Virus record (IMG/VR): IMGVR_UViG_2545824714_000008
Source of the DNA: a virus
Lineage: Duplodnaviria; Heunggongvirae; Uroviricota; Caudoviricetes
Direction: 5' to 3' (one strand)
DNA: 27,463 nt
Part shown: positions 1 to 22,766 of the stretch, in pieces
How the letters are laid out: every line of letters starts with the position of its first letter
Position numbering within the stretch: the first letter of the stretch is position 1
Position numbers and translations under genes: made by a program
The notes under the pieces: generated by a model
The model's database searches: none
Seen by the model: the letters and a program-made list of their open reading frames with translations, nothing else
What the model was told of the DNA's origin: nothing

Positions 1-352
1 AGTTTTTTAAGTGACGTAAAACCGTGTTGAGGCCAACGCCCATAATGCGGGCAGTTGCCCGGCATCCAACGCCATTCATGGCCATATCAATGATTTTCTG
101 GTGCGTACCGGGTTGAGAAGCGGTGTAAGTGAACTGCAGTTGCCATGTTTTACGGCAGTGAGAGCAGAGATAGCGCTGATGTCCGGCAGTGCTTTTGCCG
201 TTACGCACTAGCGCTGATGTCCGGCAGTGCTTTTGCCGTTACGCACCACCCCGTCAGTAGCTGAACAGGAGGGACAGCTGATAGAAACAGAAGCCACTGG
301 AGCACCTCAAAAACACCATCATACACTAAATCAGTAAGTTGGCAGCATCACC
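1..352 (-). mobile_element. IS1 insertion sequence, partial (about the first 350 bp including terminal inverted repeat and insA; continues beyond window start)
   Basis: Reverse complement of 247..352 reads GGTGATGCTGCCAACTTACTGATTTAGTGTATGATGGTG...GTGGCTTCTGTTTCTATCAGC, matching the IS1 end and insA start as I recall them. Reverse complement of 1..60 matches the insA 3' region with a few substitutions. Confidence 0.85.
171..246. repeat. Perfect 38-bp tandem duplication (171..208 = 209..246) inside the IS1 insA reading frame
   Basis: Both copies read tagcgctgatgtccggcagtgcttttgccgttacgcac. The junction creates CGC-TAG in the insA frame on the minus strand. Confidence 0.9.
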
Positions 353-455
353 TAATGACGTCAGATTTGCCGTAAACCTGGATGCCTTATCGCGTAGCGG
401 TGTAAAGGTCAACCCGGATGTCTTAATGCTCGCACGGAAGAAAAATGATGGATAA
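353..455 (+). pseudogene. yfiR: yfiR 3' remnant (periplasmic repressor of DgcN), truncated by the IS1 insertion
   Basis: The frame translates ...[33 protein letters not shown], overlaps the dgcN start in typical operon fashion, and begins abruptly at the IS1 end with an in-frame TAA at 327..329 inside IS1. Confidence 0.75.
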
Positions 456-1671
456 CGATAATTCTCTTAATAAGCGCCCCACGTTTAAAAGAGCATTACG
501 CAACATCAGTATGACCAGCATATTTATCACTATGATGCTGATCTGGTTGCTGCTTTCCGTGACCTCGGTGCTGACCCTGAAACAGTACGCGCAAAAAAAC
601 CTGGCACTGACAGCAGCAACAATGACTTACAGTCTGGAAGCAGCTGTCGTTTTTGCCGATGGCCCTGCAGCAACTGAAACACTGGCAGCGCTGGGCCAGC
701 AAGGGCAATTTTCAACTGCAGAAGTACGTGATAAGCAGCAAAATATTCTGGCATCCTGGCATTACACCCGTAAGGATCCAGGCGATACTTTCAGTAATTT
801 CATAAGCCACTGGCTCTTCCCTGCCCCCATCATTCAGCCGATTCGTCACAATGGTGAAACCATTGGCGAAGTACGCTTAACCGCTCGCGACAGTTCAATC
901 AGCCATTTTATCTGGTTTTCGCTCGCCGTACTGACCGGTTGTATTCTGCTGGCATCAGGCATCGCAATTCCCCTCACCCGCCATTTGCACAATGGCCTGG
1001 TAGAAGCGCTGAAAAATATCACCGATGTCGTACATGATGTGCGTTCCAACCGCAATTTTTCCCGACGAGTTTCGGAAGAACGTATCGCTGAGTTTCACCG
1101 CTTCGCTCTCGACTTCAACAGTCTGCTGGATGAAATGGAAGAGTGGCAGCTTCGTTTACAGGCTAAAAATGCGCAGCTTCTACGTACCGCGCTACATGAC
1201 CCATTAACCGGGCTGGCTAACCGCGCAGCGTTTCGTAGCGGCATCAACACGTTGATGAACAATTCCGATGCCCGAAAAACGTCGGCGTTACTATTTCTTG
1301 ATGGCGATAATTTCAAATACATCAATGATACCTGGGGTCATGCGACGGGCGATAGAGTCTTGATTGAAATCGCAAAACGGTTAGCTGAATTTGGCGGGCT
1401 GCGACATAAAGCATACCGCCTGGGCGGCGATGAATTCGCTATGGTGCTCTATGATGTACAGTCGGAATCTGAAGTGCAGCAGATATGTTCAGCACTGACA
1501 CAAATCTTTAATCTCCCGTTTGATCTTCATAATGGCCATCAGACCACCATGACATTAAGCATTGGTTACGCGATGACCATTGAGCACGCCTCTGCGGAAA
1601 AATTACAAGAGCTTGCCGATCACAATATGTATCAGGCCAAACACCAGCGTGCCGAAAAGCTGGTGAGATAA
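445..1671 (+). CDS. dgcN: Diguanylate cyclase DgcN/YfiN (membrane-anchored, HAMP plus GGDEF domain)
   Basis: 408-aa ORF with N-terminal hydrophobic segments, an RLGGDEF-type motif ([12 protein letters not shown]) and the yfiR-yfiN-yfiB operon context. Confidence 0.93.
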
Positions 1672-2621: not shown

Positions 2622-3431
2622 GTGTCAAAAAAGGATACAATCCAGATTATCGATATCAGGATGCAGAGACCAATCATAGCAAGAATAGAAGAAGAAAATT
2701 TAAATTTGACATTGCAAATGTCAGATAAAGCCACATTATCTGGTGCGACAGTTAGTTTTTTCACCCCAAATAACGTTTCTATATTCTTATCCTCAGCAAA
2801 AAAAGAGCTCTCAAAATCCAATTCTATATATAAAAGTCTTTTTGGAAAAATACACAAAACCAAACATAAAAACTTTAAAATTTCCGACAAAGCCCTGCCG
2901 AGACTCTATAATTACTTTGAATCAATTCAGACGGCCATTATTTCTATGTATACTGCAATTGAGTCTTTTGCAAATATATGCATACCACATGATTATGTTT
3001 ATGAAAAAAACAATGCCAAGGGAATCAAAGAATCCTATAGCAAAGAGCTAATTGAGCGATATATACCAACAAGTGAAAAAATAGATAAAATCCTACCGTC
3101 TATTTTAAATTGTGATTCGCCTAAAGGTTCAAAACTATGGCAAGATTTTAAAAGCCTTGAGTCACTTAGAAATGACATAATTCACCCCAAGACAACAAAG
3201 AAAAACACAGAAACAAAAGAAGACTCATCTTTTTTATGCATTTTACTATCAGATGACTTTATAAAAAAAGTTTCCTGTGGATTTGATTTGGTATCTTATT
3301 TTTGCAAACAAGACACTACTCATAGTCTTTTCCCAATGGGTTTCGGTGAAATTGAACTTAAACCTGTCCCAATTAAAGCCGGTGACTTTGAAAAAGTTGA
3401 TGATCATGATGAAATAGAATTACCATCATAA
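2622..3431 (+). CDS. Hypothetical protein, low-GC orphan (about 269 aa from GTG 2622; the ORF opens at TTG 2586)
   Basis: Long uninterrupted ORF in markedly AT-rich DNA with GGAG 6 nt before GTG 2622. Contains an R-x4-H stretch (LRNDIIHPK). No family recognised. Confidence 0.6.
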   Translation: MSKKDTIQIIDIRMQRPIIARIEEENLNLTLQMSDKATLSGATVSFFTPNNVSIFLSSAKKELSKSNSIYKSLFGKIHKTKHKNFKISDKALPRLYNYFESIQTAIISMYTAIESFANICIPHDYVYEKNNAKGIKESYSKELIERYIPTSEKIDKILPSILNCDSPKGSKLWQDFKSLESLRNDIIHPKTTKKNTETKEDSSFLCILLSDDFIKKVSCGFDLVSYFCKQDTTHSLFPMGFGEIELKPVPIKAGDFEKVDDHDEIELPS

Positions 3432-3547: not shown

Positions 3548-4588
3548 TTAATCTTTCCATTTAAAACCATTACATAATGTTAAAGGATTAAATGTTACAG
3601 CCTCCTCAAGATGATCCGGGGAGAAATGTGCATACTTCATAGTTTCACGAATATTCGCATGACCGAGTATACGTTGCAGCACAAGAATATTCCCGCCATT
3701 CATCATAAAATGAGCGCCGAAGGTATGACGCAGAACGTGTGTCTTTTGCCCTTCCGTCAGTTCGATATCCGTTAGTTTGAGCATCTTTTTAAACTCCTGA
3801 TAGCAAGGCTTAAACATCTTTCCCTGCCTTTCAGATAATTCGTCATACAACCATTTTGGGATCGGAACGGTTCGATTCTTTTTCCCTTTCGTTTTGGTGA
3901 AGGTCAGTTTATGTGGCGAGAGCTGGGGACGTGTCAACCTCTCAGCCTCACCCCATCTAGCACCTGTTGCAAGACAAATCTTAACAATCATGGTGAGGTC
4001 TTCTTTTCCGTATTGCTCGCATGCCTGAAACAATTTCGGAATTTGAGACAAAGTGAGCCAAGACATTTCTTTCTCGGCTTCCTTGAAAACACGGACTCCA
4101 TCAAGTGGATTTGGTAAGCTCCACTCCCCTAGCCTTTTGAGCTCATTAAATACAGCCTCAAGATATTGTTGCTCACGATTGACAGTTATCGGTTTAGCAA
4201 TCCATTTTGCCGGGTCTTTATGATAGCCATTATCTATCTCCCCCCGAAGTCGGCGGTCACGGTAATGAGCCCAATCTTTAGCAGTAAGGCGGGATGCAAT
4301 AGGGTCACCAAGTCCATTACACACGATTTGAAGTTTAGCTAACCGCGACTTACTGGCGACCAGTGCCTGTCCGTGTAAATTATGCCAAAGCTGGATAATC
4401 TCACTTAAGCGTCGGCGGTCTTCTTTCTTGCCGAGCCACGGCTTATCCTCACTCTCACTTTTCGTAAATGCTTCGAATGCCTCGGCCTCACCTTTGGTAT
4501 TGAATTGCCGACGTATACGCCGCCCTTCTCGACCATTTGGATAGAGCTCGCATAACCATTTGCCATTTTTTTGCTTACTTACAGTCAT
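3548..4588 (-). CDS. int: Phage integrase, tyrosine recombinase (P2 Int family)
   Basis: 346-aa ORF with the C-terminal catalytic region (HVLRHTF ... LGHANIRETMKYAH) at the prophage end, downstream of the repressor. Confidence 0.9.
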   Translation of the reverse strand: MTVSKQKNGKWLCELYPNGREGRRIRRQFNTKGEAEAFEAFTKSESEDKPWLGKKEDRRRLSEIIQLWHNLHGQALVASKSRLAKLQIVCNGLGDPIASRLTAKDWAHYRDRRLRGEIDNGYHKDPAKWIAKPITVNREQQYLEAVFNELKRLGEWSLPNPLDGVRVFKEAEKEMSWLTLSQIPKLFQACEQYGKEDLTMIVKICLATGARWGEAERLTRPQLSPHKLTFTKTKGKKNRTVPIPKWLYDELSERQGKMFKPCYQEFKKMLKLTDIELTEGQKTHVLRHTFGAHFMMNGGNILVLQRILGHANIRETMKYAHFSPDHLEEAVTFNPLTLCNGFKWKD

Positions 4589-21890: not shown

Positions 21891-22766
21891 CTAGCCTCGT
21901 AAATATCGTTTAGTAAATTTCGTGTTTGGTCTGGATGATAGGATTTGTCTTTCTATTTCACTATCACAGTCTATATAGTCTAGTGTATTAGCTTCTATAA
22001 GTTTGTTCACGTCAATATTTTTTGCATCGATTATGTTGGCATTTCTAAGGTTTGCATTGGTGTATTCCACTTTATCCAAATCACACTCTCTGAGTACGCA
22101 ACTTTTCATTTCCGCATTGGAAAAATCCCCACCATATAAATAGCAGCCTTCAAAAATAACACCGTTTAACTTTGAATCCTGAGCTTTAATATTTTTTATT
22201 TTACACTTTATAAATTTTACGTTTTTCATTTTGCTCTTGCTAATATTTAATGCCTGGATTGTACATCCAGTGAAAGAACAGTCTCTTATGTTAGATTTTT
22301 CCATATTTAACCCAGATAGTTCTGAGGTTTTAAAGTGTAAGTATTTAATGGTAAAAAGGTCACCCAACTCCATTCTGGGTATGTCTATATTGAAGACACC
22401 TTTATTGTTGAGCTGTCTTATTATTTTTATTTTTTGTATTTTCAAATCAACATTAACGTGCTTAGCTAAGTTTCCCAAATCCTCAAGAAGTTCATTAATC
22501 GTTTCTTTGTTTTGTCTTCTGTATTCAAAGTAATAAAGGATGACACCTAATACAAAAAAATCCAAAATGGATGAATTTGCATTTATTAGGAACCCAGACA
22601 GGAATGAATCATTGTAATTACCATAGTGTATAGAGGCAAGTGTTACGCCAAATGCATATAAAATAAAAATAATAAACACGTGCTTCATTTTGCATAAGGA
22701 TTGTATTATTGGTTTTATGGCATCAATTTTGTTCATTGCTGCAGCAGCGAAAGATTTAAAAGTCAT
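21891..22766 (-). CDS. Membrane-anchored pentapeptide-repeat protein, low-GC cargo at the S/V junction
   Basis: 291 aa with two N-terminal hydrophobic segments (HVFIIFILYAFGVTLASI, ILDFFVLGVILYYF) and about 19 consecutive pentapeptide-like units in the C-terminal half. AT-rich and on the opposite strand to the tail genes. Confidence 0.7.
   Translation of the reverse strand: MTFKSFAAAAMNKIDAIKPIIQSLCKMKHVFIIFILYAFGVTLASIHYGNYNDSFLSGFLINANSSILDFFVLGVILYYFEYRRQNKETINELLEDLGNLAKHVNVDLKIQKIKIIRQLNNKGVFNIDIPRMELGDLFTIKYLHFKTSELSGLNMEKSNIRDCSFTGCTIQALNISKSKMKNVKFIKCKIKNIKAQDSKLNGVIFEGCYLYGGDFSNAEMKSCVLRECDLDKVEYTNANLRNANIIDAKNIDVNKLIEANTLDYIDCDSEIERQILSSRPNTKFTKRYLRG

Follow-up and report, generated by a model that had tools for sequence, protein, structure and literature searches.

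An inherited IS1 knockout of yfiR in enterotoxigenic Escherichia coli, probably enlarged by an adjacent deletion and leaving a low-output dgcN-yfiB

The DNA analysed here (the window) is 27,463 nucleotides long and begins inside an insertion sequence. Positions 1–352 are the left end of IS1 read on the reverse strand, comprising the left 314 nt of the element (IS1 nt 314 to 1) and a 38-bp internal duplication. Positions 313–352, read on the + strand, give the left terminal repeat of IS1 in reverse complement (…AATCAGTAAGTTGGCAGCATCACC). The inverted repeat at this left end was read directly at 330–352 (GGTGATGCTGCCAACTTACTGAT, - strand), and 12 related loci have an identical end. The repeat stops at 352 (…GTAAGTTGGCAGCATCACC), exactly where the first-pass annotation had placed the end of the element, and alignment of 1–352 to the annotated 768-bp IS1 of the enterotoxigenic E. 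coli (ETEC) strains E54 and E1739 is base for base except for the one 38-bp duplication. The element has the imperfect ~23-bp repeats of the IS1 family, GGTGATGCTGCCAACTTACTGAT on the left and GGTAATGACTCCAACTTATTGAT on the right. It is present at its full 768 bp with both repeats in E1739, E54 and most of the other related loci examined, and shortened in E308 (767 bp) and P276M (759 bp). In E1739, insA encodes the full 91-aa InsA, matching the Pfam pair PF12759/PF03811 (Zn_ribbon_InsA, PF03811, E=3e-21; HTH_Tnp_IS1, PF12759, E=3.8e-31), and the transposase is annotated with a programmed frameshift.

The duplication, which went unnoticed in the first-pass annotation, is a perfect tandem repeat of 2 × 38 bp (171–208 and 209–246) within insA. 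It is private to the window. The insA gene is truncated (208–297, - strand): it starts with GTG at 297 and meets a TAG stop (208–210) at the duplication junction, so that InsA ends after codon 29, and insB lies outside the window. With that stop, this IS1 copy would make neither InsA nor transposase. The duplication is absent from E54 and E1739, a 46-mer across its junction had no match among 5,426 E. coli genomes, and a 26-mer had none in metagenome contigs; with no match in either collection, the idea that it is a known IS1 variant was dropped. Either a genuine mutation confined to this window or a fault of assembly would account for it.

Immediately to the right of IS1 lies what is left of yfiR. 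Positions 353–455 (+ strand) hold 1 nt, 33 codons and a stop, corresponding to yfiR nt 417–519, and are 100% identical to the last 103 nt of intact yfiR (L002 2501–2603). The tail of about 34 codons overlapping the dgcN start that had been described earlier is thus 33 codons plus a stop, and the normal 11-nt overlap is retained (yfiR stop at 453–455, dgcN ATG at 445). Alignment to the intact locus (F8111, L002) verified the junction. The 33 residues encoded by 354–452 match positions 116–143 of the 143-position Pfam profile PF13689 (YfiR/HmsC-like) with 28.4 bits (cutoff 24.9), whereas intact YfiR spans positions 5–143 and a full-length family member has ~172 aa, a signal peptide and the whole domain. 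Judged by its sequence, the remnant is a gene fragment and no functional YfiR/HmsC member; RefSeq annotates it as a partial pseudogene.

The two genes that follow are full length, in agreement with the earlier statement that IS1 destroyed yfiR directly upstream of dgcN. The dgcN (yfiN) frame (445–1671, + strand) has an intact ribosome-binding site and encodes 408 aa with a periplasmic CHASE8 domain (residues 45–146, E=1.3e-33) and a GGDEF domain (residues 249–403, E=1.5e-43) in which the motif RLGGDEF is visible. It is a CHASE8/GGDEF cyclase by domain architecture; orthologues from E. coli K-12 and UPEC are known to be catalytically active and repressed by YfiR (PMC4992967, PMC10127611). The protein differs from WP_000969032.1, found in yfiR+ relatives, at a single residue (99.8% identity). 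Next comes intact yfiB (1687–2169, + strand), encoding a 160-aa OmpA-family lipoprotein (Pfam OmpA at residues 55–151, E=1.2e-17) with the lipobox LILTGC near its N-terminus. Its DNA is identical to that of E1739 and E54, where the product is annotated as WP_000589847.1, the same protein as in JKHS016, a yfiR+ relative with the same neighbouring prophage. Both WP_000969032.1 and WP_000589847.1 are unchanged from JKHS016 in E1739, E54, M9682-C1, FG92-1, E308 and P276M. In AR_0085, one of the simple-insertion strains described below, dgcN (L013 1607–2832) is annotated as frameshifted, an annotation that either a sequencing error or a compensatory loss following the disruption of yfiR could explain.

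The rest of the window is a P2-like prophage (~2200–27463) lying between yfiB and rplS, with an integrase (3548–4588, - strand) and genes for a CI repressor, replication endonuclease, portal, terminase, capsid and tail. The prophage occurs in yfiR+ strains (JKHS016) and is missing from most IS1-bearing strains, and is therefore independent of the IS1 event. Beside the integrase, an ORF of 269 aa (2622–3431, + strand) has no Pfam match and only a faint HEPN-like one (PADLOC RTasHEPN, E=1.2e-4), and a 290-aa pentapeptide-repeat protein is encoded between the tail-morphogenesis and baseplate genes (~21891–22766, - strand). Both may be phage-carried defence or accessory functions.

The genome nearest to the window is E1739 (NZ_CM180506.1), with 99.96% identity over 27.4 kb including the prophage. 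The differences consist of the 38-bp duplication and 11 substitutions, at 970, 2893, 6114, 8005, 8082, 9808, 13648, 17666, 24247, 24975 and 25887. Transversions make up ten of the 11 (seven A:T to C:G, three G:C to T:A); most of the changes lengthen a run of G or C, and 10 replace an amino acid, frequently with a very different one (T>P, W>G, V>G). Such a spectrum is unlike ordinary divergence and resembles what errors of sequencing or assembly, or oxidative/mutT-type mutator damage free of selection, would leave. The private A>C at 970 (+ strand) accounts for the DgcN difference, T176P, located where the second membrane segment ends, and is carried by none of the 5,426 genomes. Being in no genome and belonging to the 11 error-like differences, T176P was rejected as an unreliable candidate for a compensatory mutation; it is probably a sequence error.

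How widespread is the junction? A 120-nt probe across the IS1-yfiR boundary, applied to 5,426 complete E. coli genomes at a coverage of at least 80%, matched 47, of which ~43 have exactly this junction and the rest have other IS1 insertions nearby. Carriers are mostly ETEC O6:H16 (TW10598, FMU073332, B2C, M9682-C1), joined by Bangladeshi diarrhoeal isolates (E54, E1739 and others) and by isolates from poultry, goose, frog and healthy humans; they come from several countries and hosts and were assembled independently. The whole yfiR gene was matched in 5,413 genomes and its 5' 411 bp in 5,378, so 35 genomes retain the remnant alone. An intact yfiR elsewhere was one of two findings that, according to the first-pass annotation, would overturn the knockout, and an extra copy is ruled out here, because 5' yfiR is absent from every replicon of these 35 genomes. 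The other was an assembly artefact, in which IS1 would have been wrongly joined to yfiR from one of the many copies in the genome. The genome has ~40 IS1 copies, and features resembling errors are indeed private to the window (38-bp duplication, 11 odd substitutions). Against a mis-join, dozens of genomes assembled independently contain the junction, sister lineages supply the matching left junction with a target duplication, and those genomes contain no other yfiR sequence; an artefact is thus extremely improbable. The IS1 knockout of yfiR is real and inherited, and these data show that no YfiR can be made in this lineage.

Comparison with related loci indicated how the allele arose. In E1739, E54 and M9682-C1, a complete IS1 extends from its left flank, …GCCAGCACAATACG followed by GGTAATGACTCC…, to its right flank, …GCATCACC followed by TAATGACGTCAG…. 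A shorter reading of the junctions in E1739 and E54 gives …GCACAATACG followed by GGTAATGACTCC… and …GCATCACC followed by TAATGACG…, with IS1 adjoining the end of yfiL. Relative to the intact locus (F8111, L002), 575 bp are absent from E1739-type loci (L002 1926–2500): the last two yfiL codons and stop, the entire 149-bp AT-rich yfiL-yfiR spacer, and yfiR nt 1–416, which removes yfiR codons 1–138. The shortened yfiL ends in …TIR-VMTPTY and a stop. A target-site duplication at the other IS1 end, as anticipated in the first-pass annotation, is therefore not what the closest genomes contain: in the window lineage the flanks are …CAATACG and TAATGACG…, with no 8–9 bp duplication of the kind that marks IS1. 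AR_0085, E308 and P276M have the identical right junction, keep 5' yfiR, and retain the 8-bp duplication TAATGACG, so the original insertion with its duplication survives in sister lineages only, and a simple insertion does not describe the closest genomes. FG92-1 shares the right junction and has a different, larger left deletion that ends inside yfiL. The differing left ends of E1739/E54 and FG92-1 point to one insertion followed by at least two separate deletions, and the missing target duplication in the window lineage is explained by the later adjacent deletion.

The simplest account has two steps. An ancestor gained IS1 at yfiR nt 417, with the 8-bp duplication TAATGACG and the transposase genes facing away from dgcN. 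In the ETEC O6:H16 sublineage to which the window belongs, the far, right-repeat end of the same IS1 then deleted 575 bp leftwards; FG92-1 represents a separate, independent deletion, also from the right-repeat end. Adjacent deletions without direct repeats are a known property of IS1 (PMC9330008). Since the left side of IS1 lies outside the window, we infer the deletion in the window's own genome from near-identical genomes.

A source strain resembling AR_0085 or E308 would instead have a simple insertion, with 5' yfiR, its promoter and the target duplication all lying immediately beyond the left edge of the window, and with only a polar effect on dgcN-yfiB. Its left flank would read …CACAATAATGACG, against the …GCCAGCACAATACG of yfiL expected from the deletion. 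Because the window opens within IS1, it does not show the left junction, and relatives with the identical right junction do exist. We nevertheless regard this as very unlikely. The window equals E1739 save 11 positions of 27.4 kb and its IS1 part equals that of E54 and E1739 save the 38-bp duplication; both of these strains have the deletion, and the IS1 common to them differs at 42 positions from the copy in M9682-C1. Among IS1-bearing genomes, moreover, the adjacent P2-like prophage was found only in the deletion-type E1739 and E1535. For this lineage, the differing flanks and the missing 575 bp led us to reject a simple insertion bordered at its far end by a target duplication.

The IS1 copies at this site have themselves diverged. 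Those of E1739/E54 (L003 5547–6314) and M9682-C1 (L010 747–1514) have identical junctions on both sides and 42 internal differences, which implies that a different IS1 variant has been exchanged into the site, by gene conversion or by recombination. Ten genomes make up the E308-type simple insertions, and in these the left repeat of IS1 has lost 1 nt, turning TTGGCA into TTGCAG; the 759-bp IS1 of P276M is annotated as frameshifted. The E308-type and P276M elements (loci L012 and L014) are decaying, immobilised copies.

The yfiR region has been hit by IS1 repeatedly. With probes of the same type, and telling events apart by distinct junctions and target duplications, we counted ~14 independent IS1 events in both orientations. 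Six have the orientation seen in the window (the window type, O121 201805972, VG1046-3E9, 3385, LR-31 and YZ3-11) and ~8 the opposite one, including one in strain Evo1, a name that suggests laboratory evolution. A matched comparison probe for the 3' half of dgcN, covering the 560 bp that precede yfiB, gave three IS1 events (14 vs. 3, one-sided binomial p=0.006). These three independent insertions inside dgcN are found in JP538 (H29/H271), the WP4-S17-ESBL-08 group (H272–H281) and the EC2/SW0716 group (H283–H286), one of them common to 10 genomes; with IS1 in yfiR as well as in dgcN, the yfiRNB operon has been hit in several lineages. Six right junctions fall within 33 bp, at yfiR nt 404–436 (p ~0.005 when a simulation placed 14 events at random along 585 bp). 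The IS1 target contains TAATGAC, also found in the IS1 right repeat, a weak observation.

An orientation bias of IS1 at yfiR was rejected on the count of 6 against ~8, and without an orientation preference the outward -35 at the IS1 left end is not what is selected. With orientation unbiased and the junctions so closely grouped, a mechanical hotspot of insertion is the main reading. Selection for loss of yfiR could account for the higher count in yfiR than in dgcN, provided that DgcN is expressed. That IS1-borne loss of YfiR is a recurrent, positively selected adaptation of E. coli, switching DgcN to YfiR-independent operation, seems to us doubtful; if it were so, colonisation, persistence or antibiotic tolerance might be altered, with the later promoter deletion tuning the dose.

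What the allele does depends on whether dgcN is still transcribed. The sole + strand promoter-like site in the intact yfiL-yfiR spacer, CTCACA and AATAAT separated by 18 nt with an upstream TG (L002 1989–2018), lies inside the deleted stretch. In a consensus scan that is crude and sees sigma-70-type sites only, no + strand promoter-like site passed in window positions 1–700, and in E1739 the single + strand site that passed lies ~720 bp upstream, within IS1. The IS1 transposase promoter faces away from dgcN. By eye, a weak hybrid promoter can be proposed at 339–367 (+ strand), combining TTGGCA of the terminal repeat (339–344) with CAGATT of the yfiR remnant (362–367) across a 17-nt spacer; CAGATT matches the -10 consensus at three of six positions and was not listed by the scan. 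As the scan returned no + strand site near dgcN, this remains a candidate picked by eye. IS1 terminal repeats do carry an outward -35 from which hybrid promoters can form (PMC8764528, PMC9330008), but such a promoter needs a well-placed -10, and at three loci where the effect of IS1 was measured, expression went up, went down or was unchanged (PMC8764528).

On these grounds dgcN-yfiB would be without its own promoter region, and any remaining transcription would come from read-through from yfiL over 768 bp of antisense IS1 or from the weak TTGGCA-17-CAGATT promoter. DgcN would probably be low or absent, any that is made would be without its periplasmic repressor, and the locus would be uncoupled from redox and envelope sensing and not driven to strong constitutive c-di-GMP synthesis. 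The first-pass annotation had left two outcomes side by side, a de-repressed DgcN or a silenced operon; the lost promoter region shifts the balance to low expression or silencing, and the rewired c-di-GMP signalling that it put forward stays putative. Taking in the published results given below as well, we regard a promoterless DgcN, low or silent yet unrepressed, as the probable outcome, and strong constitutive synthesis as an unlikely one.

The opposing explanation is that dgcN-yfiB is meaningfully transcribed, through the hybrid promoter or read-through, so that DgcN is constitutive, c-di-GMP is raised, motility falls and matrix production increases, the allele having been selected for that phenotype. 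Loss of YfiR does free DgcN in E. coli (PMC4992967, PMC13031359): yfiR transposon insertions are enriched among high-c-di-GMP cells (PMC13031359), and disruption of yfiR under native expression gave cellulose activation and biofilm phenotypes, according to work cited in PMC4992967. Given these mutant phenotypes, even low expression of DgcN may matter, and native yfiN expression is itself too low to be seen with a GFP fusion (PMC4992967). The junction offers TTGGCA-17-CAGATT and an intact dgcN ribosome-binding site, and IS1 ends are able to form working hybrid promoters (PMC9330008, PMC8764528). The yfiR region has ~4.7 times as many IS1 events as a stretch of dgcN of equal length, and the frameshifted dgcN of AR_0085 in this clade is possibly a suppressor.

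Set against this are the deleted native promoter region, the 3/6 match of the -10 candidate with no site passing the scan, the occurrence of both IS1 orientations (6 vs. 8), and the six events within 33 bp that suggest a mechanical hotspot. The E308-type sister lineage also persists although its 1-nt deletion destroys TTGGCA. Finally, DgcN has no autoinhibitory sites, and ectopic expression from non-native promoters leads to runaway c-di-GMP, GTP depletion and a growth stop (PMC10127611), yet the allele persists in a widespread ETEC lineage, and dgcN and yfiB are unchanged from JKHS016 in all inspected IS1-bearing strains but AR_0085; this cost argues against strong DgcN activity. A selected, de-repressed cyclase is thus an unlikely explanation. 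We consider it probable that the allele is an inherited IS1 knockout of yfiR, later enlarged by IS1-mediated adjacent deletion, with a low-output dgcN-yfiB.

To our knowledge, YfiR is the only brake on DgcN. DgcN shows no product inhibition, and its overexpression can cause growth arrest and raised antibiotic tolerance. A natural allele lacking YfiR is carried by many ETEC O6:H16 genomes, from human-diarrhoea isolates of several countries. With YfiR removed, redox and envelope stress no longer feed into c-di-GMP at this locus in the usual way in these strains. A silent cyclase and a leaky, always-on one could differ in their effect on motility, matrix production and persistence. The recurrent hits also provide a natural experiment, with simple-insertion, deletion and both-orientation alleles on near-identical backgrounds. 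The value of the allele would rise if recurrent loss proved adaptive in ETEC.

Our literature searches on yfiR with IS1, on enterotoxigenic strains and on insertion at dgcN returned no description of this allele or hotspot. Functionally this amounts to a naturally occurring null allele of yfiR in the YfiBNR system, and mechanistically to textbook IS1 behaviour. As in the known yfiR loss alleles of YfiBNR (TpbB/DgcN) systems, namely P. aeruginosa small-colony variants, CFT073/UTI89 deletions and transposon mutants, the repressor is gone while the cyclase and YfiB are intact. In those studied alleles, however, the operon promoter is kept or supplied by a cassette, whereas the present allele has lost the promoter region and has 768 bp of IS1 upstream, and a de-repression phenotype therefore cannot be taken for granted. 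The junction likewise resembles the IS1 hybrid-promoter activation of bla TEM-1, acrEF and afaA, in that the left end with its outward TTGGCA faces the gene and a possible -10 lies at 17 nt; unlike those cases, the -10 candidate (CAGATT) is poor, activation is putative, and independent hits show no orientation preference. The closest parallel is the classical adjacent deletion of IS1/Tn9 (Turlan and Chandler 1995, as cited in PMC9330008). So far as that citation describes it, the two share the same 768-bp element with canonical repeats, one end fixed at the insertion point and the other on new DNA without a direct repeat, and sister lineages that retain the 8-bp target duplication. Compared on that account we see no mechanistic difference; what is new is the target, yfiR, its spread in ETEC, and two independent deletions from one insertion.
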